This document shows, in pieces, positions 21,798 to 36,948 of a stretch of DNA of 64,000 nt (within the stretch, counting starts at the first letter, position 1; each line of letters begins with the position of its first letter). Below the pieces are notes generated by a model that saw only the letters and a list, made by a program, of their open reading frames with translations, ran no database searches and had not been told where the DNA came from. Source of the DNA: an uncultured Candidatus Saccharibacteria bacterium (lineage in GTDB: Bacteria > Patescibacteriota > Andersenbacteria > UBA10190); NCBI GenBank assembly GCA_964654145.1, contig CAZZHI010000001.1:9956-73955 (forward strand), given 5' to 3'. The translations under genes and the position numbers were made by a program.

Positions 21798-23222
21798 ATG
21801 ATACGCTATTTTTCGTATATGAAAGATGCTCAAATATGGAAAGTCGCACTCGATCAGCTTGAGCTTAAAGTAAGCCAGGGGAACTTCCTTACTTGGTTCC
21901 GGAATACTAGCATTAAAGAAAGGAATGGAAGCACATTACTCATAGAAACAAAAAACCCATTCGCATACGAATGGCTATCTAAAAAATATCGTCCTATTAT
22001 CCTAGAGACTCTTCAGGGTATTGATTCTAAAATTTCAGATGTTAAGTTTTGTATCGCATCAAAAAGCACAGAAAAAAGAATTATTAAAAAAAATATCCGT
22101 GTCATTGCCCAAAAAAACGCCTCCGCAAGCTCAATAGGTACATCTTTATCAGGAACACCCTCAAATACAGTCCAAGAATCATCAAAAGATCATCCATCAT
22201 CACTTCCATTTAATAAAAATTATACTTTCGACACATTCGTTGTTGGCACAAGTAATGAAATTGCCCACGCGGCTTGCCGCGCGGTTGCCGCACGCCCCGG
22301 GGAAGCGTATAACCCTCTCTTTATTTATGGGGGAGTAGGATTAGGTAAAACACACCTCCTCCAAGCTGTTGGTAATACTATAAAAGAAGCTAATCCAAAC
22401 TTTACTGTCCTATATGTTGCTTCGGAAAAATTCGCAAATGAATTCGTGGAATCCCTCCAAGAGCACACTACCCAACAATTTAAAAAAAGGTATAGAAATA
22501 TAGATGTTCTTATTATTGACGATGTTCAATTTTTTGCCGGTAAAGACAAAACACAAGAAGAGCTCTTTTATACATTTAACGCGCTTCATAGCCAAAACAA
22601 ACAACTTATCTTAAGTAGCGATCGACCACCTAGCGCAATCCCTACACTCCAGGAACGATTATCATCCAGACTTTCAGCTGGAATGATTGCTGATATTAAA
22701 AAACCAGATTACGAAACTCGCCTCGCAATACTTCAGGAAAAAAGAGACTTACGAAATATTCCAATAGACCAAGACGCATTAGTATTTATCGCTAAGAATA
22801 TTCAAAGTAATGTAAGGGAATTAGAGGGTGCCCTTAACAGAGTTGCGGCATACTGCGAACTCCATAAAGAACGAGCAACTGTAGAGTATACAAAACATAT
22901 CCTTAAAGACATTTTAGAAAAACCCCAAAGAAAAACTATAAACGTAGAAGATTTAATTGCCGCAGTTAGCTCTTACTATAACGTCCCCAACACTGAACTA
23001 AGGGGGAAGTCTAGAAAAAAAGAAATTGTGCGCCCCCGCCAAGTTGCTATGTACCTCCTCAGAAAAGAAAGTAGTATGTCGTTCCCATCTATTGGTAACC
23101 ACTTTAGTGGAAGAGACCACACTACAGCTATGCACGCTTGTGAAAAAATAGAAAAACTTATAGAGCACGATGAGGAACTCTCTCGAGAGATCGGCTTCCT
23201 CCGAGAAAGAATATATGCCTAG
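21798..23222 (+). CDS. dnaA: Chromosomal replication initiator DnaA
   Basis: It has an AAA+ Walker A (GGVGLGKTHLL), a Walker B (LIIDDVQF), and a C-terminal DNA-binding domain (VAMYLLRKESSMSFPSIGNHFSGRDHTTAMHA). Confidence 0.95.
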   Translation: MIRYFSYMKDAQIWKVALDQLELKVSQGNFLTWFRNTSIKERNGSTLLIETKNPFAYEWLSKKYRPIILETLQGIDSKISDVKFCIASKSTEKRIIKKNIRVIAQKNASASSIGTSLSGTPSNTVQESSKDHPSSLPFNKNYTFDTFVVGTSNEIAHAACRAVAARPGEAYNPLFIYGGVGLGKTHLLQAVGNTIKEANPNFTVLYVASEKFANEFVESLQEHTTQQFKKRYRNIDVLIIDDVQFFAGKDKTQEELFYTFNALHSQNKQLILSSDRPPSAIPTLQERLSSRLSAGMIADIKKPDYETRLAILQEKRDLRNIPIDQDALVFIAKNIQSNVRELEGALNRVAAYCELHKERATVEYTKHILKDILEKPQRKTINVEDLIAAVSSYYNVPNTELRGKSRKKEIVRPRQVAMYLLRKESSMSFPSIGNHFSGRDHTTAMHACEKIEKLIEHDEELSREIGFLRERIYA

Positions 23223-23462: not shown

Positions 23463-24569
23463 ATGAAATTCACATGTACGCAGGAAAACTTACTTCGAGG
23501 GGTCTCACAAGTTGCTCCAATAGCGGGTCGGAACGCTCAGCTTCCAATTCTGCAAAATATTCTTCTTCAGGTTCAAAATAATACACTAGCACTTACAACA
23601 ACTGATTTAGAGATAGGTATTAAAACTCAAATAGGTGGAAAGATGGAAGAAGATGGAAGTTGTGTTCTCCCTGCTAAAAGGTTTATGGAGTATGTTCAGC
23701 AACTTCCTAAGACAAACCCCATAACACTAGAAAAGAAGGAGGGTAAGGTTTTTGTTACCACAAAAGGATTTCGTGCTCAGTTTTTATCTGCTGATCCTGA
23801 AGAATACCCACTTCTTCCTGAAAATGTAAAAGATGACCCTATTACTATTAATGCAAAGATGTTTTGCGGCGCTATAAGTCAAACAATATTTTCTGCAACA
23901 CGGGAAGAGACAAGGCCTGAAATTAGGAGTGTGTATATAGTGTGGAAAGATGGAGGAATACACGTTGCTGCAACAGATAGTTTTCGACTCGCAGAGTATA
24001 CGGCCGCACTCCAGTCTTCTGATGATGGTGTGTCTCTTTTATTACCACTAGCTTCAGCCCAAGAGGTTGTTCGACTGTTTCATGAACAGGAGAGTATTCG
24101 TATCGCACTTTATGATAATTACGTTTCATTTGAAAGTGGTGGTATTGAGCTTACTTCGCGTCTTGTTGATGGTAAATATCCAAACTATGAAGATATTATC
24201 CCTACAAGTCATACAACAAAAATACAGATAGGTAGGGATGATTTATTACGAGCATTAAAAACACTATCCGTTTTTCTTCCAAAAGAATCACGTAGGGTCT
24301 CTTTGGAAATTCGTCCAGTAAAAGGTGAGGTTCTACTACGTGTTGCTGGGGGTGATGTGGGGCAGGGTGACGTTATTATTAGTGTTGAGGGTGAAGGTGA
24401 AGATGTGAATGTGTTGGTGAATATTCAATATCTTATAGATGGAATATCTCATTTTTCAGGAGATGTTTGTGAAGGGTTCTTTTTAGGGGCTTTTGATCCG
24501 GTTGTTTTTCGAAGGCAGAGTAAGGATGATGCGTATTTATATGTAATTATGCCAATTCAGGCCCAATAG
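23463..24569 (+). CDS. dnaN: DNA polymerase III beta sliding clamp DnaN
   Basis: The protein is 368 aa and starts MKFTCTQENLLRGVSQV. It has a three-domain beta-clamp size and pattern. Confidence 0.9.
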   Translation: MKFTCTQENLLRGVSQVAPIAGRNAQLPILQNILLQVQNNTLALTTTDLEIGIKTQIGGKMEEDGSCVLPAKRFMEYVQQLPKTNPITLEKKEGKVFVTTKGFRAQFLSADPEEYPLLPENVKDDPITINAKMFCGAISQTIFSATREETRPEIRSVYIVWKDGGIHVAATDSFRLAEYTAALQSSDDGVSLLLPLASAQEVVRLFHEQESIRIALYDNYVSFESGGIELTSRLVDGKYPNYEDIIPTSHTTKIQIGRDDLLRALKTLSVFLPKESRRVSLEIRPVKGEVLLRVAGGDVGQGDVIISVEGEGEDVNVLVNIQYLIDGISHFSGDVCEGFFLGAFDPVVFRRQSKDDAYLYVIMPIQAQ

Positions 24570-24570
24570 T

Positions 24571-25635
24571 ATGAAGGTTAAATCATTATCCGCGCATCAG
24601 TTTAGAAATTTTGCGCATTTTCAGCCAATAGTTTTTCCAGAAGCGCCACTTCTTGTTGTTTTGGCCCCAAATGCGAGCGGAAAAACTAATTTTTTAGAAG
24701 CGGTTGTTATGCTTTTGCGCGGGAAGTCCTTCCGAGCATCTGCGGAGGAGTGTGTTATGGCTGGATCGGACAATTTTATTGTTCGTGGTGATGTTGGGGG
24801 TAGTGAGGGGGATGTGGGACTTATGGTTTCTTACACTATCCCAACTCGAAGTATTAAAATACAAGAAAATAATACTCCTATTTCCCCGGTAACGTTTTTG
24901 GGTCATTATCCTCTTGTACTTTTTTTACCCGAAGATGCATTTCTTTTTAATCGTGGACCTGCTGGTCGAAGAAATTTTATTAACACCTCACTTGCTGGTA
25001 ATAGGCAATATCTTGCTAGTGTTGTTCAGTATCATAGGGCGCTTCGGCAGCGAAATTCTGCCCTAAAGAGTGCAAGTAAAATAGAGGATGTAGAAGTGTG
25101 GACTGATCTTTTAGTAGAGCATGCGAAGGTTATATGGGCGCACCGAGAGGTGTTTGGGAATTATCTTACAGAGAATACTCCAGTTATTTATAAGGATTTA
25201 TTTCAGGAGAGTCTTGATATAAAAGTCTCGTTTATTCCAGGAGTTGCTCAAGTAGATTCTTTTCGTGAATTACTTTCACAAGCTTGGGGGTATGAAAAAA
25301 GATATAAGTATACAATGTATGGCCCTCATCGAGATGATATTGTTGTGCATGTTAATAATAAGCCCGCGGAATCAGTTATGTCCCGAGGTCAGTTACGAGG
25401 ATTGGTTATATCTATGAAGGTTGCTGCCTATGGCTATATGAAGCAACTTTTAGGGCAAGACCCATTACTTTTATTTGATGAAGTATTAAGTGAATTGGAT
25501 CCTGATCGCCAAAAAAGCCTTCTACAACACCTACCTGCAACACAGACAATTCTTACATGTACAACAATTCCAGAAGAGGTTAAAAAAAGGGATAATGTAT
25601 TTGTTTTAGATGTTAGGCCTCTTGTCTCACCCTAG
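24571..25635 (+). CDS. recF: DNA replication/repair protein RecF
   Basis: It has a Walker A (APNASGKTNFLEAV) and an SMC-like C-terminal LLFDEVLSELD Walker B / D-loop. Confidence 0.9.
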   Translation: MKVKSLSAHQFRNFAHFQPIVFPEAPLLVVLAPNASGKTNFLEAVVMLLRGKSFRASAEECVMAGSDNFIVRGDVGGSEGDVGLMVSYTIPTRSIKIQENNTPISPVTFLGHYPLVLFLPEDAFLFNRGPAGRRNFINTSLAGNRQYLASVVQYHRALRQRNSALKSASKIEDVEVWTDLLVEHAKVIWAHREVFGNYLTENTPVIYKDLFQESLDIKVSFIPGVAQVDSFRELLSQAWGYEKRYKYTMYGPHRDDIVVHVNNKPAESVMSRGQLRGLVISMKVAAYGYMKQLLGQDPLLLFDEVLSELDPDRQKSLLQHLPATQTILTCTTIPEEVKKRDNVFVLDVRPLVSP

Positions 25636-26646: not shown

Positions 26647-29475
26647 TTATTCAATAGTAATTGTGTGGGTTGATGATTGTGTGCTGTTTCCGGTTTTGTC
26701 GTATGCAACAGCATAGAGGCGGTATGTTCCTGGCCCTGGGGATGTTTGCCATGTAGAGTCATAGCGGTTTGGGTTTGATGAAGTTGGACTCGTGATGCGA
26801 ACTGCTCGTTGTGTACTCGTACTATCTTCTTTTGAGTACAGTACGTCTACAAAGTCGACTCCACTTGCGTCTGTTGCTGTTGTTTTAATAGTAAAGGGAA
26901 AGGCTGATTCCTTGATTTTGCTATTATTACCAGGTGTGTGAAGGGTGATTTTAGGGGCAGAGCTGTCAGGGTTGATTATAAATGTTCGATGAGCAACTCC
27001 AATAAGGCTATCTTCGGTGATCGCCTGTATGATAAGCGTTTTTCTACCCGAGAATGAAGAGGGGAATGAGAGGGAGGCTTCGTATGGCTCACCGGCTTTT
27101 CGGGAGGCTATTTCTTGCCCATCTACTAAGAAGCGCACAGTTTTTAGTGGGTGGCTAGATTCTATTTCTGCTACAATTTTTGTCGGACTTTCTTTTAGAA
27201 TTGTTTCACTTGGTGATGCAATCCTAACCTTTGGAAGCTCTTCACTACTCCCAATATTACAAGAAGGGGTTGGAAGTGATGTCACATATAGCGGTTCCGC
27301 AGGGTCATCTTTTTTCTCTTCGTTATGCTTTGCTGCCCATGCGGCAATCGCTGCTTCCCAGTTATTAAATTGAGGATCTGCTTCTGCCTGGGCTGGAGGT
27401 TGTCCATTTGGGTCTCCTTTTCGCGTGTAAAATAGGATGCTATGAATTTCTTTAAAGGTCCGTATTTGGCCAACGTTTATTGGGCAGTCTACTGTGTAGA
27501 GAGTTTGAGTTTCTGCTACCCATTTTCCCTTCACTTCAGGCATTTTTCCATCGATTATTCCATTTGGCGCAGGCTCTTGGGGTTCGGGGTTTGTAAATTG
27601 TTCAATTGGAGTTCCCTCTAGTGCTTTTTTCATAAAAGCATTCCAGATTGGGGCTGCGGTGTGGGCCCCTGCTGACTTACCGTTCATTGGGGAGTTGTCA
27701 TTATTTCCCGTCCAAACCCCTGCAACTAGGGATGGGGTGTAGCCAACGGTCCATCCGTCTCTAAAATCTTGAGTAGTTCCTGTTTTTGCCGCCGCCGGGC
27801 GTGCTCCTAGCTGAAGTGGGCTGTTTGTGCCGAATACAATCGATCGAGCATTGTTATCAGATAGTACATTCGTTACTGTTCTCGCAACTTGTGGATCGAG
27901 CGCTGATGTTCCTTGCACTGGATTTTTTTCTGCATCAAAGAGCGTCTCGTCTCCATGTTCTACTTTTAGGATTGCTCGAGGGGGGAGTTTTGTTCCCTCG
28001 TTTGCAAATACTCCATATGCGCTTGTTATATCGAGCAAACGCACCTCTCCTCCTCCAAGAACGAGCGATAAGCCATATCGATCTGGGTCTGTCAGTGTTG
28101 AGAGGCCCATCGCCTGCGCTAAGTTTATAGAATTCTTTACGCCAGCGAGGTATAAGGTTTTTACTGCAGGAATGTTAAACGAATTTCCTAAAGAAGACCG
28201 CATGGAGACAGGCCCTTTTTGGGAGAGGTCATAGTTTTTAGGAATGTACCCTTGGCCGAAATCTGTCTCAGCGTCTATGAGGATTGTTTCAGGCCTGTAG
28301 CCCTCTTGGAATGCCGCAGCATATATAAAAGGCTTGATAGATGACCCTGGGGATCGTAATCGAATCGCTACGTTTACGTTCCCATCAATTTCTTTATCGA
28401 AATAGTCCATTGAGCCAACCATCGCGAGAATATCTCCAGTCTTAGGGTTTATTGCAACCAGTGATGCATTTTTTGCGCCACCAGCTTTCAGGCGATCCCT
28501 GTAATTTTTCATCGCGTCTTCAGCGGCTTTTTGAAGGCGCATATCTAGCGATGTAATAACTTTTAACCCCCCTTGCCCAACAACCCGCTCTCCGTATTCC
28601 TGTTCAAGGAGCTCTTTTATATAAAAGACAAAATGAGGCGCTTGGATGTTTTCAGATGCGGCTTGGAATGAAAGGGTCTCTTTCTTCGCCTGTTCCGCTT
28701 CTTCTTTACTGATCATTCCAAGATCTGCCATGCGGCCAATAATATATTCTTGGCGAGACTTTAGATCATCCATGTGTGACCCGTAAGGGGAGTATCGCGT
28801 AGGCGCTTGGGGCATGGCTGCGAGCGTGGCGGCTTGAGCAATTGTAAGGTTCTGTGATGAAATTCCGAAGAATGTTTGAGCTGCCGCTTCTATCCCATAC
28901 GATCTGCTCCCGTAAGGAATGGCATTGAGGTACATTTCTAAAATCTCATCTTTTGAAAATCGTTGCTCAAGTTCTATCGCAAGCACAGCCTCTTTAACCT
29001 TTCGCTGAAGGGTTCTTTCTGGTGAGAGGATGGAATTTTTAATAAGCTGTTGCGTAATAGTGGAGCCTCCTTGAGCTCTTTGGCCGCTTAGGGGTTTTAA
29101 GATTACACCTCTAATTAAACCGCTCAACTTGATTCCTCGGTGCTCATAAAATTTGTCATCTTCTGCAGCAAGGGTTGCCTTTGCTACGTAGGATGAAATA
29201 TTCGAAAGTTTTACATATGTGCGTTTCGCCTCTCCTATTTCGTATAAGAGGTTTTTTCCAGTTGAGTCATATATTTTTGTGGACTCATTTATTGGGCCTT
29301 GTTGAATATTACTCGGATCTGGCAAATCTCGACTCCACCAAAGAACCGTTCCTGCGGATACAAGAAGTAATACCCCGGCCGCGGTAAGGGCTTTGGGAAT
29401 CATTTTTCTGGAAAACAGTCGGTGGAATAAAATGGCGCCAATATGAGTATGTCTATTGTATCGCCTTGTTGGCAT
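26647..29475 (-). CDS. Class A penicillin-binding protein (PBP1A: GT51 transglycosylase + transpeptidase) with a C-terminal Ig-like extension of about 250 aa
   Basis: It has an N-terminal TM helix, GT51 motifs (EDDKFYEHRGI, TITQQL), and transpeptidase motifs SxxK (GSSIKP) and KTG (KTGTT). A beta-rich tail with two repeated modules follows. Confidence 0.9.
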   Translation of the reverse strand: MPTRRYNRHTHIGAILFHRLFSRKMIPKALTAAGVLLLVSAGTVLWWSRDLPDPSNIQQGPINESTKIYDSTGKNLLYEIGEAKRTYVKLSNISSYVAKATLAAEDDKFYEHRGIKLSGLIRGVILKPLSGQRAQGGSTITQQLIKNSILSPERTLQRKVKEAVLAIELEQRFSKDEILEMYLNAIPYGSRSYGIEAAAQTFFGISSQNLTIAQAATLAAMPQAPTRYSPYGSHMDDLKSRQEYIIGRMADLGMISKEEAEQAKKETLSFQAASENIQAPHFVFYIKELLEQEYGERVVGQGGLKVITSLDMRLQKAAEDAMKNYRDRLKAGGAKNASLVAINPKTGDILAMVGSMDYFDKEIDGNVNVAIRLRSPGSSIKPFIYAAAFQEGYRPETILIDAETDFGQGYIPKNYDLSQKGPVSMRSSLGNSFNIPAVKTLYLAGVKNSINLAQAMGLSTLTDPDRYGLSLVLGGGEVRLLDITSAYGVFANEGTKLPPRAILKVEHGDETLFDAEKNPVQGTSALDPQVARTVTNVLSDNNARSIVFGTNSPLQLGARPAAAKTGTTQDFRDGWTVGYTPSLVAGVWTGNNDNSPMNGKSAGAHTAAPIWNAFMKKALEGTPIEQFTNPEPQEPAPNGIIDGKMPEVKGKWVAETQTLYTVDCPINVGQIRTFKEIHSILFYTRKGDPNGQPPAQAEADPQFNNWEAAIAAWAAKHNEEKKDDPAEPLYVTSLPTPSCNIGSSEELPKVRIASPSETILKESPTKIVAEIESSHPLKTVRFLVDGQEIASRKAGEPYEASLSFPSSFSGRKTLIIQAITEDSLIGVAHRTFIINPDSSAPKITLHTPGNNSKIKESAFPFTIKTTATDASGVDFVDVLYSKEDSTSTQRAVRITSPTSSNPNRYDSTWQTSPGPGTYRLYAVAYDKTGNSTQSSTHTITIE

Positions 29476-29518
29476 AGGGGTATTATAGCATGTCTTGGCA
29501 ACGTCTTTGTGTCAATGT

Positions 29519-30826
29519 CTATTTTTGACGAAATTTACTAGGGTTTACAAAGAAGCCTTTTAGGTCTCGGCGACCTAAGATCATGCCGTACTTCATGTGG
29601 GACCTATCAATAAGGGAAACTTCTGTTGTTATATGTTTTTTCCGAAGTATGAGCGATAGCGAGACTACCGGGCGAGTCTGCTTTCCTAGGGCTCCTCGTA
29701 CGCCTTTATGAAGAATGACCGGCTTATCAACGCCTAGCTTTTTAGCAATACTCTCATCGATAGTTGTTCTGTATGCTCCAGTGTCTACTTTTGCCAGAAG
29801 GGGAAATTGCTTGCCTTCATGATCCAAAATAATAACCTGCTCTTCTATTCCGAGGATTGTGTGCCCGGCAATTTCATCAAGTTCCTGCTCAACTTCTGCG
29901 CCAAATAAATGTTTTGCAAGTTGAATTTTCTTTTCAATGCCTTTTAGTTTTAGTCCCTCAACTCGTTGGAGACGCGATTTTAATGGAGCAAGATTTGCGA
30001 ACTGAATATCGAGTCCAGGCCGAGCGTTTACCTCGAGAACGAGAGGCCCATCTTCTCTGTCGATTGCTATATCTACTCCAACGTAATTAAGTCCGCATGC
30101 GAGCGATGCTCGAGAAGCAAGCAACAGTACATCGTCCCATTGCGGGATTTGCAAGCCCGCAATTCGTAGTCGGTTATGTGGCAAAATGTCTACTTGTTGG
30201 CGATGCTGTATTGCGGTTGTGGTGATACCGGTAGCTAAGTCTATGCCAACCCCGATTCCTCCCATATGGAGATTTGCGCGCCCTGCCGACTCCTCTGTTG
30301 GGAGGCGAAGCATGGCCATTACGGGCACCTGGTTATAGAGGATAATGCGAATATCTGGAATGCCTTTAATGCAGTATGGTTTTAAGTCGGCATGTATTTT
30401 AACTCTCTGTTCAAAAAAAGCTGTATCAGGAACATTCCCTTTTGAAAAATCTCCATCAAGGATGTCCATGATATGTTTTCGGAGGTCGGGGATAAAGACT
30501 TCGCTTTTATTTGCTTTTACCCAGTTCCCTTTTTTGTTTCTCCCAAAAATAACAACAATGCCCCCGCCCCCAGATGATGAATTCGGCTTAAGCACGAACG
30601 AGGAGGGGAGTTTCGTCCACCTGAAGTTTTTCAGTTCGGATCTATTTCTTACTATGGAAAATAAGCGGGGGGTGCCAAGACCATTTTTTTGAAGAGCCTT
30701 TTTTGTTGCCAGTTTGTTATTAGCAATACGTATGGATTCAGGGGAGTTTGCTTTTACTATATAGTCAACCATTCGGGAATTCATACCCAAAATATTTTTC
30801 CATTGCTTGTTGATCCACGCCGCCAT
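29519..30826 (-). CDS. RimK-like ATP-grasp ligase fused to a C-terminal retropepsin-like (Zn_protease/DUF785-type) domain
   Basis: The ATP-grasp part has FVLKPNSSSGGGGI, IRIILYN...LHMGG and VGVDIAIDREDGPLVLEVNARPGL. The C-terminal part has LLAKVDTGAYRTTIDESIAKKLG and is 435 aa. Confidence 0.6.
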   Translation of the reverse strand: MAAWINKQWKNILGMNSRMVDYIVKANSPESIRIANNKLATKKALQKNGLGTPRLFSIVRNRSELKNFRWTKLPSSFVLKPNSSSGGGGIVVIFGRNKKGNWVKANKSEVFIPDLRKHIMDILDGDFSKGNVPDTAFFEQRVKIHADLKPYCIKGIPDIRIILYNQVPVMAMLRLPTEESAGRANLHMGGIGVGIDLATGITTTAIQHRQQVDILPHNRLRIAGLQIPQWDDVLLLASRASLACGLNYVGVDIAIDREDGPLVLEVNARPGLDIQFANLAPLKSRLQRVEGLKLKGIEKKIQLAKHLFGAEVEQELDEIAGHTILGIEEQVIILDHEGKQFPLLAKVDTGAYRTTIDESIAKKLGVDKPVILHKGVRGALGKQTRPVVSLSLILRKKHITTEVSLIDRSHMKYGMILGRRDLKGFFVNPSKFRQK

Positions 30827-30844
30827 AATGTATGGAGTATGAAA

Positions 30845-32398
30845 TTATTGAATGTACTGAAGGAGCCGCCTAAAGCGAATATATTCTGTGAGTCGAAGCC
30901 CGCTCCAGCGTCCCAAAAGTATATTAATTGGGATTGCTAGCAATACAATTTCCGGATAAGACACAAATAGTGTTCGAACAATTTGCCAGCTTACGATAAA
31001 GTAGCAGCCAATAGAAAGTGCGAGTGTCCACGCAGTTACGGTTAATGCTTTTTTTGCGCCAGATTTAAACTGAAGCGCAATAAACTCCTCTGCTAGCAAT
31101 GTGAGAATTAAGATAGGGAATATAGAGAATGATGTTAGCGCGGTGTTGTCAGTAGCAACCCCTAATCCAAAGACGAGTAATATGGCCAAGCTTACGCCAG
31201 TAAGCACGAGAGCCATTCGGGGTAAGTAGAGAAGATGTAGTCTTCGCATAGCAAGTCTTGTTATGGTTCCTGACACTAAAATCGCGGAGAAGATGAGAAG
31301 CCCGTAGGGGAGGCCCATTACCAAAAAACTGAGAGTTGTCATCGCTGGGGTTACAAGTCCGAATGCCTTCATTCCAATCACTTGCCTTGAAAACGATAAG
31401 ATCGTTGCAATAACTGGAAGCATTAAAATAAGAGAAATACTGTTGATGGGAATTCCTTTATTTACGAGGTAATTGATTCCAAAAGACATAAAATTGGTAG
31501 GCCCTATATCCGCACTTGTTCGAGCGCTAAACTCTCCTAATAAGCGATGCCCAACAGAAGATGCGATGATTTTTTGTTTGGCAGCTTCTGCGGAAAGTGG
31601 CTCTAGGAGCATGCTTAGGGCGTCGGGTTTTGCCAGTAGGATATAGCTTGGCTGTAACTGATTAAATGCAAATTGAGCGGAAGGTGTGAGTACTCCAAAC
31701 GGAGTTTCTGATAAGATGATGATCCCTTTATCTCGCATCGCAAGATCATTAAACGATATATCGGAAACTTGTCTAATGTGTTGCGCTAATTTTGATAGAA
31801 CGTTTACCCCTACGCTTCCGGAGGTTTGTACAATGATAAGATTTGTTTTCTTGATGGCTTCTCGGGCATCAAGGAGCTGGCTCGTAAGAGCCTCTTCCGT
31901 AACAACTTCGGGGCTGTTTGTTTTTGCGCGAATGGGTATGAGGAGTACCTGTTCTTGGGCTGCCTGCTGTTCGCGGAGTGCTATTTGATCTTCGGGAAAA
32001 GCGTTGTCGATAACAAGCATTGTCACGTGACTAAAGATATGAATTTCTGTAGTGTCTTCGGCTATTGATCCGTCATCTGTTATAAGTGAAAGCCGTACGG
32101 TGTATGTGCCTGCGGATGTGTATGTGTGACTAACGTTTTCTCCGGTTACTCGCGTTCCGTCTCCAAAATTCCAAACAAACTCTTTTGCCGACGATCCTTC
32201 TTTGAGAGAGTAGTTTCCAATAGAAAAATCATTGGATTTACCACTAAACGAGTTGCGTATACCTTGGGCGATATAGACAACGTTTTCAGAAGCGGCTTCC
32301 TCTTGGGCTTGCGCAATATATGCCCCGCTTACTGATGCTGATATAAAGATTGTTAAAAATAGTGTAGTAATTTTTTTCATAGATATTATGTTGCGCAT
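30845..32398 (-). CDS. Secreted PKD-domain protein fused to a C-terminal multi-TM domain (7TM fused to an inactive-transglutaminase-like region candidate)
   Basis: It has a signal peptide (alternative start MKKITTLFL at 32380), a PKD signature (NFGDGTRVTGENVSHTYTSAGTYTVRLSLITDDGS), and about 7 TM helices in the last 220 aa. Confidence 0.55.
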   Translation of the reverse strand: MRNIISMKKITTLFLTIFISASVSGAYIAQAQEEAASENVVYIAQGIRNSFSGKSNDFSIGNYSLKEGSSAKEFVWNFGDGTRVTGENVSHTYTSAGTYTVRLSLITDDGSIAEDTTEIHIFSHVTMLVIDNAFPEDQIALREQQAAQEQVLLIPIRAKTNSPEVVTEEALTSQLLDAREAIKKTNLIIVQTSGSVGVNVLSKLAQHIRQVSDISFNDLAMRDKGIIILSETPFGVLTPSAQFAFNQLQPSYILLAKPDALSMLLEPLSAEAAKQKIIASSVGHRLLGEFSARTSADIGPTNFMSFGINYLVNKGIPINSISLILMLPVIATILSFSRQVIGMKAFGLVTPAMTTLSFLVMGLPYGLLIFSAILVSGTITRLAMRRLHLLYLPRMALVLTGVSLAILLVFGLGVATDNTALTSFSIFPILILTLLAEEFIALQFKSGAKKALTVTAWTLALSIGCYFIVSWQIVRTLFVSYPEIVLLAIPINILLGRWSGLRLTEYIRFRRLLQYIQ

Positions 32399-32841
32399 AA
32401 AGCTGCTGCTAAGGCATCTGCCGCATCGTCTGGGCGAGGGATGTCTGTTAGGCGCAGTTGTTGTTGTACTGCTCGCTGCATTTGTTCTTTTGAAGCTGAC
32501 CCATAGCCTGTAAGGCGAGATTTGATTTGGAGCGGAGTGAGTGTTTGGATCGCGATGTTATGAATTTGCAGTACATATAAAAGAACTCCGCGAATATGGG
32601 CTGTTGTGATTGCTGTTTTTACGTTTGTCCCAAAAAATATCTGCTCTACCACTGCAGCTACGGGTTTGTGTTCTCTGATTATCTGTGTGAGATCTGATGC
32701 AATACTGGCAAGACGATTTTCTAGAGTGTCTGTTGAAGGTGTTGTAATGCACCCGCAACTAATAAATTGGTTTTTTTGAGAAGTGTCTACAATCCCGTAA
32801 CCAGTTCGGGCAATACCCGGATCTAGCCCTAAAATGATCAT
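32386..32841 (-). CDS. ruvC: Crossover junction endodeoxyribonuclease RuvC
   Basis: It has ILGLDPGIARTGYGIV, catalytic acidic residues and an RNase H-like fold pattern, and is 151 aa. Confidence 0.85.
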   Translation of the reverse strand: MIILGLDPGIARTGYGIVDTSQKNQFISCGCITTPSTDTLENRLASIASDLTQIIREHKPVAAVVEQIFFGTNVKTAITTAHIRGVLLYVLQIHNIAIQTLTPLQIKSRLTGYGSASKEQMQRAVQQQLRLTDIPRPDDAADALAAALCAT

Positions 32842-32893: not shown

Positions 32894-33427
32894 CTAACAA
32901 TTTCCATAGATGTCGATATTCCCAAATTTGTAAAAATTTCCTTGCCCTATTATGACTTTAGAGTTCTCCATGCAGCTAATTGAGGGGGATGCATGATGAA
33001 AGGTTGTGTGAGTTATCGTGTTAATACTGTTATGCTCGAGAGTAATTCCATTCCAGTTCCTGTTGCGCTCATTGCTCTCGTTAGAGATAAGCAAAATAGA
33101 GTCTTCTTCCGTGCCCAGTGCTTGTAGTGATCCGAAAACTCGTATACCGGCATACTCATCGAAGGCTAATACGGTACCGGGAAGAAGTGTTAATTTCCCT
33201 TCATTTTTTATTGTTATTGTTTCGTGGACGGTTACAATGCCTTGGTTTGGCCCTATGGTAATATGCTCCGTAATGGTGGATGGGAGTATTGAGTTTTGTG
33301 GATGCGCAGGTGTGTGGAATGGTATGTCTTCTGGTTCTTTTGTGGACTGTATGAGGGAATCTATAGAAGAAAGCGCAAGTGCTGATACGAGTGCCGCAGC
33401 AATAACAATAGGGAAGATTGCTTTCAT
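32894..33427 (-). CDS. Secreted hypothetical protein
   Basis: It has a signal peptide (MKAIFPIVIAAALVSALALSS), is 177 aa, and I recognise no family. Confidence 0.45.
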   Translation of the reverse strand: MKAIFPIVIAAALVSALALSSIDSLIQSTKEPEDIPFHTPAHPQNSILPSTITEHITIGPNQGIVTVHETITIKNEGKLTLLPGTVLAFDEYAGIRVFGSLQALGTEEDSILLISNESNERNRNWNGITLEHNSINTITHTTFHHASPSISCMENSKVIIGQGNFYKFGNIDIYGNC

Positions 33428-35136: not shown

Positions 35137-36948
35137 ATGATGTTCGGCCCTATACCTCTTCTTTTTATAAGTTTTTGGCCAATTTTAAGGGGTGTTGCAG
35201 CACAGGAAGTTCCAAGGGTCGCCTTAAATGAAGTAATGTGGGCTAAGGCAGAGTATATAGAGTTAGTAAATTACGGTGACGAGGATATTAATCTAAGCGG
35301 CTGGCGTATTGTGCGGCAAAAGCCGGGAGATTCGGAGGAGGACATAGTGCTATTTGGTACTTCTGACGAAGTCTCCGCAAAGCAATATTTTCTTATTGAG
35401 TCAGCAGAGGATGCTACGAGCGTATCTGCAAATAAGATTAAGGGTTCCTTGGGTCTTATCGATGGCGGTGTACTGTTGCGTCTCTATAATTCCGAAGGAG
35501 TTGCAGTTGATACTATAAATCAATTAGGTTCGTGGTTTGCGGGCAAAAATGATGCTGTTGGAGCGTCTATGGAGCGAAACAATCCCTCGGATGACGGAAC
35601 GAGCTCATCGAGCTGGCACACTTCTATTGGGAATAGCAGGGGAAGAATCGGCACTCCTGCCGAAGAAAACAGTCCCAATAGCACGCCGTCCCCAACGCCA
35701 AGTAATACCCCCGCATCTTCTCCGAGCGCAACTCCTTCTACGGTCCCTAGTAGCGTGCCTTCCGTGCCTCCCATTTACTCTGATCGAGTGTATATTAATG
35801 AATTTATACCGAACCCCGCAGGAGATGATGCTGCGGGTGAATTTATTGAACTCTATAACGCTTCTTCGGCGCCGATTGATATATCTGGTTGGATTTTGGA
35901 TGATGTTGAGAACGGGGGCAGCGCTCCTTTTACTATTCCAGAGGGGGCAAGTATACCCGCGAACGGATACGCAGTATTTTCTCGAACCCAAACAAAAATA
36001 TCAATGAACAATGATAGTGATCATGTTAGGTTGGTAAGGCCGGATGGGGTAATTCAAAACGATATCGCGTATCAGGATTTAGGTGATGGTATTTCTTACA
36101 GTAGAGGTACGTCTGGGGATTTTCAAAAAACCTCAATTCCTACTATGGGCGCAGAAAATATTATTCAGACTCCTAAGGATTCTCCTGTAAAAGCAGAGGG
36201 CGGAGAGAGTGGGGAGGATGAAGAAAATTCCCCGACTATTTCTTATGATTTTTCTTCCAAAATATTTATTAATGAAATTTTGCCAAATCCCGAGGGTTCC
36301 GACATAGAACAAGAGTTTATTGAGTTAAAAAGCCACGATACGCAACATATTAATCTTGTGGGTTGGGCACTTGATGATGGAATTGATGGAAGTAGTCCGT
36401 ATAGATTTAGTGAAAAAGATTCTATTGCTCCCGGAAAATTTTTTGTTTTATTTCGTTCTAAAACAAAGCTCGCTCTTAATAATGATGTAGATAGTGTTCG
36501 TCTTATTGATCCGACCGGAAAAATTGTTTCTCATGTTGAGTATGGTGTTGGTATAGTAGAGGGTGCTTCTTATAGTAGGATTGAACGAGATCAGTTTGTT
36601 TGGACCCAAAAACCTACGCCGGGTATAGAGAATACTATTTATGTTCAATCAAAAGATAAGGATTCGCCCGAAAATGAAGTTATCAAAAAATCGACCCCTA
36701 AGCCAAAGGCCCAGTCTCGTGTTCGAGGTCTTGCCGTATCCGTGCCTCGAATATCTCCTTCGCCTACCCCCTTGCTTCCATGGGAGGATCTTACCAATAC
36801 GGCTAAGGCGACAAAAGATCCTAGTAGGGCTTCTTTGGGGAATTCTTTTGGCCCACGGCAAAAAATCTTTATATTCGGGTGGATGGTCGTTGGGTGCGCT
36901 CAATTTTTATCAGGATTATCTCGAAAAGAGGCAATTTGGCAGAAGTAA
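35137..36948 (+). CDS. Secreted protein with three lamin-tail-domain (LTD) repeats and a Ser/Pro/Thr linker
   Basis: Three LTD signatures are present: LNEVMWAKAEYIELVNYGDEDINLSGWRI, INEFIPNPAGDDAAGEFIELYNASSAPIDISGWILDD and INEILPNPEGSDIEQEFIELKSHDTQHINLVGWALDD. Confidence 0.7.
   Translation: MMFGPIPLLFISFWPILRGVAAQEVPRVALNEVMWAKAEYIELVNYGDEDINLSGWRIVRQKPGDSEEDIVLFGTSDEVSAKQYFLIESAEDATSVSANKIKGSLGLIDGGVLLRLYNSEGVAVDTINQLGSWFAGKNDAVGASMERNNPSDDGTSSSSWHTSIGNSRGRIGTPAEENSPNSTPSPTPSNTPASSPSATPSTVPSSVPSVPPIYSDRVYINEFIPNPAGDDAAGEFIELYNASSAPIDISGWILDDVENGGSAPFTIPEGASIPANGYAVFSRTQTKISMNNDSDHVRLVRPDGVIQNDIAYQDLGDGISYSRGTSGDFQKTSIPTMGAENIIQTPKDSPVKAEGGESGEDEENSPTISYDFSSKIFINEILPNPEGSDIEQEFIELKSHDTQHINLVGWALDDGIDGSSPYRFSEKDSIAPGKFFVLFRSKTKLALNNDVDSVRLIDPTGKIVSHVEYGVGIVEGASYSRIERDQFVWTQKPTPGIENTIYVQSKDKDSPENEVIKKSTPKPKAQSRVRGLAVSVPRISPSPTPLLPWEDLTNTAKATKDPSRASLGNSFGPRQKIFIFGWMVVGCAQFLSGLSRKEAIWQK

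Follow-up and report, generated by a model that had tools for sequence, protein, structure and literature searches.

A ligase-retropepsin fusion gene paired with a 7TM_transglut gene in Andersenbacteria: a possible two-gene Rlo-type system of the candidate phyla radiation

The rloABC genes of Pseudomonas aeruginosa have recently been characterised both genetically and structurally (Lormand et al. 2025, mBio, PMC12239564). The rloA gene encodes a secreted retropepsin that cuts runs of at least eight glutamates; the product of rloB joins an inactive transglutaminase to a 7TM region, and that of rloC is an ATP-grasp protein of the cytoplasm (PMC12239564). The subject of this work is a pair of adjacent genes, one for an ATP-grasp ligase fused to a retropepsin and one for a 7TM_transglut protein with a PKD domain, in a 64,000-nucleotide (nt) stretch of contig CAZZHI010000001.1 (assembly GCA_964654145.1, positions 9,956 to 73,955), referred to below as the window. 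The contig is deposited under Candidatus Saccharibacteria and placed by GTDB in Andersenbacteria, within the candidate phyla radiation (CPR). There is about an even chance, in our estimate, that the pair is a streamlined two-gene Rlo-type system, in which poly-alpha-glutamate would be synthesised and shortened on the cytoplasmic side of the 7TM protein and the product, or a signal, passed outward.

In Pseudomonas, the Rlo proteins have roles in cell shape and in the tolerance of hypo-osmotic stress and of beta-lactams, and a link of these phenotypes to peptidoglycan has been suggested; a triple RloA-protease mutant dies under hypo-osmotic conditions, and losing rloB or rloC suppresses this lethality (PMC12239564). 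Residues K46, D48, R114 and R137 of RloA are catalytic or bind polyglutamate, and R114A or R137A abolishes function (PMC12239564). Genetically, Rlo functions are separable from those of Rim; of the matches to RloB, 96% were reported to come from Proteobacteria, and rlo was suggested to have arisen from rim in Gammaproteobacteria (PMC12239564). In the Rim system, RimB binds RimK and stimulates the synthesis of poly-alpha-glutamate; a hybrid of the two, RimBK, whose N-terminal part is the peptidase, is likewise active (Little et al. 2025, PMC11957791). Cleavage by RimB needs at least six contiguous glutamates.

The ligase, the retropepsin and the 7TM protein

Two open reading frames (ORFs) were found on the minus strand at the coordinates given in the original prediction, which had been drawn from the letters of the sequence. 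The first, at 29519-30826, encodes the 435-amino-acid (aa) fusion of ligase and retropepsin, and contains the quoted motifs FVLKPNSSSGGGGI, LEVNARPGL and LLAKVDTGAYRTTID. The second, at 30845-32398, is a 517-aa ORF, for which Pfam and hydropathy agree with the predicted signal peptide, PKD domain, region of about 170 aa and C-terminal 7TM block; the residue numbers used below for the 7TM protein are those of this ORF. Domains were called by Pfam and NCBIfam profile searches of the window proteins, and the invariance of residues was scored across 35 homologues. The comparison operon was rloA-rloB-rloC from plasmid 5 of Legionella adelaidensis (locus L085), whose RloA has a signal peptide if it is read from an upstream in-frame methionine. 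The profiles and this operon bear out the proposal that the genes belong to the ATP-grasp, 7TM_transglut and retropepsin system. For the CPR counts, species-representative genomes were scanned with a single TM5 peptide pattern, resulting in 80 loci that, with four earlier loci (L001-L004) and less three duplicates, make 81 CPR loci, typed for content with hidden Markov models built from our own alignments. The counts cover the genomes that match the pattern and are no measure of how far the module spreads beyond them.

The anticipated ATP-grasp core and C-terminal retropepsin do occur in a single protein. The ligase part matches ATPgrasp_ST (PF14397) over residues 19-290, with an E value of 1.7e-65 and 221.5 bits (cut-off 31.4). 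It aligns to Legionella RloC with 35% identity over 312 aa (E 1e-63), an alignment that covers the whole 314-aa RloC and stops at residue 308 of the fusion, which corresponds to the C-terminus of RloC. By these alignments, the ligase domain is a full-length RloC-type ATP-grasp. It falls outside the RimK family, given that TIGR00768 scores 53.7 bits against a cut-off of 143.4 and PF08443 aligns to residues 236-273 only. The ATP and magnesium motifs K80-P-x4-GGGG, RANLHMGG, D252 and E265-x-N267-x2-PG are invariant in the homologues, and K80 with its glycine-rich loop, RANLHMGG, D252 and E265-x-N267 also align with RimK structures. By hydropathy, the fusion protein has no transmembrane (TM) segment, other hydrophobic segment or signal peptide. 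Since the retropepsin is the C-terminal part of a protein without a signal peptide, the peptidase is cytoplasmic, a consequence of the fusion that the original prediction had missed.

The retropepsin domain matches Zn_protease/RimB-like PF05618 over residues 360-430 (E 1.8e-10), with further, weaker matches to the retropepsin clan. The NCBIfam models for RloA3, RloA2, RloA and RimB match it weakly, and its profile matches PDB entries 9g58 and 9g59 as well as Ddi1. The residues K346-x-D348-T-G-A, R385-P and D407-R408 are invariant, and align with 9g58/9g59, with Legionella RloA and with a haloarchaeal fusion protein described below. K346, D348, R385 and R408 map to K46, D48, R114 and R137 of RloA, and K-x-D[TS]GA is present in all 81 of the complete CPR fusions. 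The distance from the catalytic-motif aspartate to the RP motif is 37 aa in the clade of the window, compared to 68-73 aa in Moranbacteria and about 66-68 aa in RloA-type proteins, and therefore the flap region is shorter. There is no second retropepsin gene in the window.

Between the two domains lies an acidic, amphipathic-looking linker that reads GAEVEQELDEIAG in the window protein and GGE[IV]EEE[ILV]EE[IL]SG in most CPR lineages, as part of a motif, LFGGE[IV]EEE[ILV]EE[IL]SG[KR]K, that is conserved over 79 CPR fusion proteins. From its sequence, it is possible that the linker is a docking helix for the basic tail of the 7TM protein or a pseudo-substrate of the peptidase. Self-cleavage at the linker is unlikely, as it has at most three contiguous glutamates, compared to the run lengths required by RimB (at least six) and RloA (at least eight).

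The membrane part of the second protein is indeed 7TM_transglut, with a PF14402 match over residues 301-512 (E 5.3e-30, 105.1 bits against a threshold of 25). Alignment to the NCBIfam model for RloB is limited to residues 319-514 (a separate entry gives positions 312-507), and the block aligns with residues 313-503 of Legionella RloB at 30% identity (E 8e-23). Hydropathy shows a signal peptide (hydrophobic residues 10-28) and seven TM segments. Lysine and arginine abound in all three inside loops and in the C-tail, such that the topology is N-out/C-in and obeys the positive-inside rule. Residues kept from CPR proteins to RloB include FPxLIL..E(437), LPR(394), PE(483) and GLRxxExxRF. Use of the 7TM C-tail as a RimK-style Glu-Glu acceptor was considered and dropped, with basic tails in 84 of 84 loci. 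Five divergent PKD-7TM representatives (P0388, P0378, P0365, P0361 and P0379; alignment A4) end in EE to EEEEE, and one of their clusters includes a Peregrinibacteria protein.

The PKD domain is matched over residues 64-119 (PKD_4/PKD, E 1.2e-14), with 54.5 bits for PF18911 and 39.5 bits for PF00801, and it also matches the PKD domains of collagenase ColH in the PDB (E 1.6e-13). It carries the WxFGDG motif, and W76, G79, D80 and G81 are conserved. In a full-length AlphaFold2 model, the PKD domain and residues 124-287 have a pLDDT (a per-residue model score) above 90, the separate entry for the PKD domain reading above 87. A model of the 170-aa domain by itself (pLDDT 91.5, predicted TM-score 0.88) is an alternating beta-alpha-beta sandwich that gives only generic flavodoxin/Rossmann-like matches. 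The original prediction had expected a transglutaminase-like middle domain here. The transglutaminase profile PF14400 has no match in the window protein, as compared to 152.6 bits for Legionella RloB as a positive control, and a transglutaminase Pfam match is absent from all 10 divergent family members examined. Together, profiles and model rule out a transglutaminase-like (papain-like) fold for residues 123-292 or so. Because no catalytic-type residues are conserved in the ectodomain across the wider family, we take the modelled alpha/beta domain to be a non-catalytic module, for binding or as a scaffold, that stands in the place of the inactive transglutaminase.

Distribution and gene neighbourhood

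Near-identical and related proteins carry the name Candidatus Andersenbacteria (Patescibacteria/CPR), and each of the two architectures is found in at least 120 clusters at the 90% identity level. A profile search of 1.84 billion representatives gave, at the 50% cluster level, about 35 family representatives of full length, as well as two without PKD; the search used a full-length profile that includes PKD, and its matches were dominated by giant multi-PKD proteins. The cluster of one representative holds a Candidatus Peregrinibacteria protein. The papers searched make no mention of these Pfam names and do not link the module to Patescibacteria. Some third-party metagenome assemblies with a CPR-type locus are labelled Saccharibacteria, Gammaproteobacteria, Bdellovibrionales or Bathyarchaeia, and these labels look unreliable.

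The fusion gene and ruvC were counted in the 77 loci with enough flanking sequence, and PBP1A (see below) in 32 loci with the "full" 7TM protein and 44 with a bare one. In 76 of the 77 loci, the gene immediately after the 7TM gene is the fusion gene, the sole exception having a gap of 880 nt, which upholds the expectation that the pair is syntenic in other genomes. The pairing spans Andersenbacteria, Kerfeldbacteria, Moranbacteria and genomes of the Parcubacteria group, at identities of 38-88%. The 7TM protein has the full architecture (alpha/beta domain, 7TM block and PKD, the last lacking in two) in 35 of the 81 loci. In the other 46, from Moranbacteria and others, it is a bare 7TM protein of about 215-235 aa without an ectodomain, and therefore the 7TM block itself is the conserved partner of the fusion. 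The 7TM and fusion proteins of Moranbacteria were confirmed by Pfam and NCBIfam.

In 71 of the 77 loci, the gene immediately before the 7TM gene is ruvC, though the downstream content differs (for instance, L044 3443-6093). The conserved unit is thus ruvC, the 7TM gene and the fusion gene, with a variable ectodomain. A functional reason for the link of ruvC to the module is not apparent. At least 23 loci outside Andersenbacteria, from Moranbacteria and other CPR bacteria, have one to three additional stand-alone ATP-grasp genes directly after the fusion gene, as in L044 (6044-7117), L037 (6603-9190) and L038 (6614-8554). These extra ligases resemble the ATP-grasp module of cyanophycin synthetase and GshB, and are absent from the clade of the window.

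In the window, Pfam confirms both of the flanking genes that were predicted, ruvC and a class A penicillin-binding protein (PBP1A). An operon running from ruvC to PBP1A had also been proposed; the flanks are as stated, and the operon itself is unproven. PBP1A directly follows the fusion gene in 24 of the 32 full loci and in none of the 44 bare-7TM loci. This adjacency is specific to Andersenbacteria, and PBP1A was rejected as a module member. In addition, the 43-nt gap between the ligase and PBP1A genes (29476-29518, minus strand) reads TTGACA-22 nt-TGcTATAAT-acccct-ATG. Both hexamers are perfect, an extended -10 is present, the spacer is 22 nt, and the element ends 6 nt before the ATG. Given this promoter-like element, PBP1A may have its own promoter, possibly one that yields a leaderless mRNA. 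In two relatives, L001 and L003, the element shows no clear conservation.

The gaps between ruvC, the 7TM gene and the ligase gene are 5-18 nt. Taken at its longest, the 7TM ORF shares 13 nt with ruvC (in the region 32380-32398). An ATG at 32380, encoding Met7, lies 5 nt past the ruvC stop codon TAA (32388-32386), and a start there gives a canonical MKK... signal peptide. As Met7 is nearly invariant among homologues and is also where database gene calls start (511 aa), this start is favoured, and the 7TM gene probably spans 30845-32380 and encodes a 511-aa protein. The features are collected in Table 1.

Table 1. Features of the gene pair and its immediate neighbours in the window
Feature	Coordinates	Strand	Basis
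RloC-type ATP-grasp ligase domain, residues 1-308 of the fusion	29903..30826	-	PF14397, TIGR02291, Legionella RloC alignment
Acidic linker, residues 309-322, GAEVEQELDEIAGH	29861..29902	-	Conserved motif in CPR fusions
RimB/RloA-type retropepsin, residues 323-435, cytoplasmic	29522..29860	-	PF05618, weak RloA/RimB models
7TM_transglut block, residues 300-517, basic cytoplasmic loops and C-tail	30848..31501	-	PF14402
Extracytoplasmic flavodoxin/Rossmann-like alpha/beta domain, residues 123-292	31523..32032	-	Predicted structure
PKD domain, residues 40-122, extracytoplasmic	32033..32281	-	PF18911/PF00801
Probable true start (Met7) and signal peptide of the 7TM protein	32282..32380	-	Homologues, hydropathy
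ruvC, upstream neighbour	32386..32841	-	PF02075, E 8.4e-40
Class A PBP (transglycosylase, transpeptidase and Big_7 domains), downstream neighbour	26647..29475	-	Pfam

The order ruvC, PKD-7TM, ligase-peptidase, PBP1A, ..., recF, dnaN, dnaA recurs in relatives at 55-58% identity. In the window, the sign of the guanine-cytosine skew changes near 24 kb, beside dnaN (23463-24569) and recF (24571-25635), and a 474-aa ORF (21798-23222) occupies the place that dnaA has in related loci. Together, these features place the module within about 10 kb of a probable replication origin. On the other side, 32894-33427 encodes a secreted 177-aa protein, whose L001 counterpart has a weak beta-helix match, and 35137-36948 a secreted 603-aa protein rich in serine and proline, whose counterparts carry LTD and, in L003, also PKD. 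Similar ORFs that contain PKD lie upstream of ruvC in many Moranbacteria loci.

Possible function of the pair

The original prediction listed the function as unknown, which has become outdated with the characterisation in 2025 of rloABC (PMC12239564) and of RimB and RimBK (PMC11957791). In the Rlo-type reading, the best supported of those considered, the RloC-type domain would ligate amino acids with ATP, most likely L-glutamate in alpha linkage, given that its family makes specificity for glutamate probable. The product would be an oligo- or poly-alpha-glutamate, either free or on an acceptor. The retropepsin domain would probably dimerise upon oligomerisation of the ligase, cut acidic chains internally and so limit their length, and probably stimulate ligase turnover, as RimB does for RimK. 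The fusion protein would act at the cytoplasmic face of the 7TM_transglut protein, whose basic loops and C-tail could dock the ligase, perhaps via the acidic linker helix, or bind the anionic product. The conserved glutamate and proline residues embedded in the membrane could then pass the product or a signal outward. In Andersenbacteria, the PKD and flavodoxin-like part would probably serve as a binding module at the cell wall, in place of the transglutaminase of RloB. Because the CPR peptidase is inside the cell, trimming would come before export, as in RimK-RimB. The extra ATP-grasp genes of other CPR loci fit with peptide assembly.

Several points weigh against this reading. The score of the ligase with TIGR02291, "alpha-L-glutamate ligase-like protein", is 258.4 bits, below the equivalog cut-off of 314.2. 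The flap region of the peptidase is about 30 aa shorter than in RloA or RimB, and its specificity could differ. The peptidase is cytoplasmic here, as opposed to the periplasmic cleavage that the Pseudomonas genetics indicates. We infer, and this is not a claim of the authors of that study, that the suppressor genetics fits with a product of RloB and RloC that needs to be cleaved outside the cytoplasm; if trimming precedes export in CPR bacteria, then the logic of the system may differ from that in Pseudomonas. A transporter role of the 7TM block is putative, and the TM part of the full-length AlphaFold2 model has a low pLDDT of 50-68. No obvious glutamate-rich acceptor is found either in the window or in the 7TM C-tail.

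One alternative is that the fusion protein behaves as RimK and RimB do, adding and trimming polyglutamate on a cytoplasmic protein such as ribosomal protein S6, which with its acidic C-terminus is the substrate in the Rim system. The 7TM protein would then only control the ligase from the membrane, as a sensor or an anchor, and nothing would be exported. The peptidase, with no signal peptide and fused to a cytoplasmic ligase, does resemble RimB and RimBK, it retains the polyglutamate-binding residues, and haloarchaeal fusions of a RimK-type ligase to a retropepsin exist with no 7TM neighbour. The ligase, however, is of the RloC/ATPgrasp_ST type, with a TIGR00768 score far under its cut-off and PF08443 confined to a 38-aa stretch. 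The near-obligate pairing with 7TM_transglut (76/77) is a hallmark of rlo rather than rim loci, and the Pseudomonas genetics sets Rlo apart from Rim. This alternative is unlikely on balance. The window, the only sequence searched for an S6 gene, was not found to have one. The pair might instead assemble an envelope peptide other than polyglutamate, such that the ligase, elsewhere with additional ATP-grasp ligases, builds a short peptide or modifies a peptidoglycan or lipid-linked precursor, which the 7TM protein flips or presents and the retropepsin matures. The one to three cyanophycin-synthetase/GshB-like genes after the fusion in at least 23 loci keep such a defined peptide under consideration, and PBP1A adjoins the fusion gene in Andersenbacteria, with a peptidoglycan link suggested by Lormand et al. 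for the Rlo phenotypes. Yet the clade of the window has no extra ligase, the adjacency to PBP1A is lineage-specific and comes with a promoter-like site of its own, the peptidase keeps exactly those basic residues that bind polyglutamate, and the ectodomain lacks conserved catalytic residues. We regard this explanation as improbable, to much the same degree as the Rim-like one.

It could also be that the two genes are unrelated neighbours, held together by lineage-wide synteny near the replication origin. The region from ruvB to dnaA is syntenic within Andersenbacteria, and therefore adjacency inside this lineage alone proves little. The pair nonetheless stays adjacent where the flanks differ, as in the bare-7TM loci of Moranbacteria without PBP1A, and the same three domains form an operon in Gammaproteobacteria, so that chance neighbourhood is scarcely credible. 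A bolder form of the Rlo-type reading, and a doubtful one, holds that a bare 7TM protein and the ligase-retropepsin fusion are the minimal Rlo machinery. In this form, 7TM_transglut would be a new translocase that takes the acidic peptide made by the ligase, poly-alpha-glutamate, through the membrane to the cell wall, and the outer domain, whether an inactive transglutaminase, PKD plus flavodoxin-like or absent, would be an adaptor open to exchange. The linker would either bind the basic C-tail or, acting as a pseudo-substrate, gate the peptidase.

In Pseudomonas, the rlo genes have been linked to cell shape, to the formation of biofilms and to tolerance of antibiotics, and the CPR version narrows the roles of RloB and RloC. 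In CPR bacteria, with genomes of about 1 megabase, a 7TM block and a single cytoplasmic ligase-peptidase protein are what is left of the system. It can thus do without the transglutaminase-like domain and without a secreted peptidase, and the one partner that the ligase always keeps is the 7TM block. The CPR loci define the smallest conserved core of the system, contradict the view of rlo as an essentially gammaproteobacterial invention and extend the system to CPR bacteria. The small, fused CPR proteins would be convenient for biochemistry and structural work, for which the acidic linker and the basic 7TM tail are candidate contact sites.

Comparison with known systems

Poly-gamma-glutamate synthesis (PgsB/CapB with PgsC/A) and cyanophycin synthetase both rely on ATP-dependent amide ligases that make poly-amino-acids, and the Pgs system exports its product with small membrane proteins. 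The resemblance of the CPR pair to these systems is one of analogy only, as the membrane proteins and, for Pgs, the ligase are unrelated, the linkage chemistry differs, and there is no homology beyond the ATP-grasp fold. RimK-RimB and RimBK (Little et al. 2016, 2025; PMC4741518, PMC11957791) are closer, in that a cytoplasmic ATP-grasp protein of the alpha-L-glutamate-ligase type works with a cytoplasmic retropepsin that cuts polyglutamate. RimBK sets a precedent for a single polypeptide, and RimB for a peptidase that stimulates its ligase. However, the CPR ligase lies outside the RimK family by TIGR00768, the order of domains is ligase then peptidase rather than peptidase then ligase, and rim loci have no 7TM partner.

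When plasmids were searched by tblastn, the matches included RimK-type ligases of haloarchaea that carry a retropepsin at their C-terminus and have no 7TM gene beside them, such as WP_338918009.1 from Salinirubellus (L086, 2461-3810). These proteins share the ligase-then-retropepsin order and the K-DTGA, RP and DR motifs with the CPR fusion, but their ligase is RimK-type (84 bits for PF08443) and no 7TM_transglut gene is nearby. They are annotated merely as "RimK/LysX family", and their domain order is opposite to that of the published RimBK hybrid. A system of an ATP-grasp ligase, a 7TM protein with an inactive transglutaminase and a peptidase was reportedly predicted by Iyer et al. 2009 (Mol Biosyst 5:1636, cited in PMC12096838), from which PF14397, PF14402 and PF05618 are said to have been defined. 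Unlike that system, the CPR module lacks the PF14400 domain and has its peptidase fused.

The closest system is rloABC, from which the CPR module differs in that its peptidase is fused to the C-terminus of the ligase and has no signal peptide, whereas RloA is separate and secreted. The PF14400 domain of RloB gives way to PKD and the flavodoxin-like domain in the window protein and to nothing in Moranbacteria, and the clade of the window has a flap about 30 aa shorter. The hosts are CPR bacteria rather than Proteobacteria, and ruvC is a conserved neighbour. In both, however, the same three families (ATPgrasp_ST/TIGR02291, 7TM_transglut and the PF05618 retropepsin) are encoded by adjacent, co-directional genes. 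The 7TM motifs FPxxIL..E, LPR, PE and RLxExxRF are common to RloB and the CPR protein, and the CPR retropepsin keeps K-x-DTG and the two polyglutamate-binding arginines.

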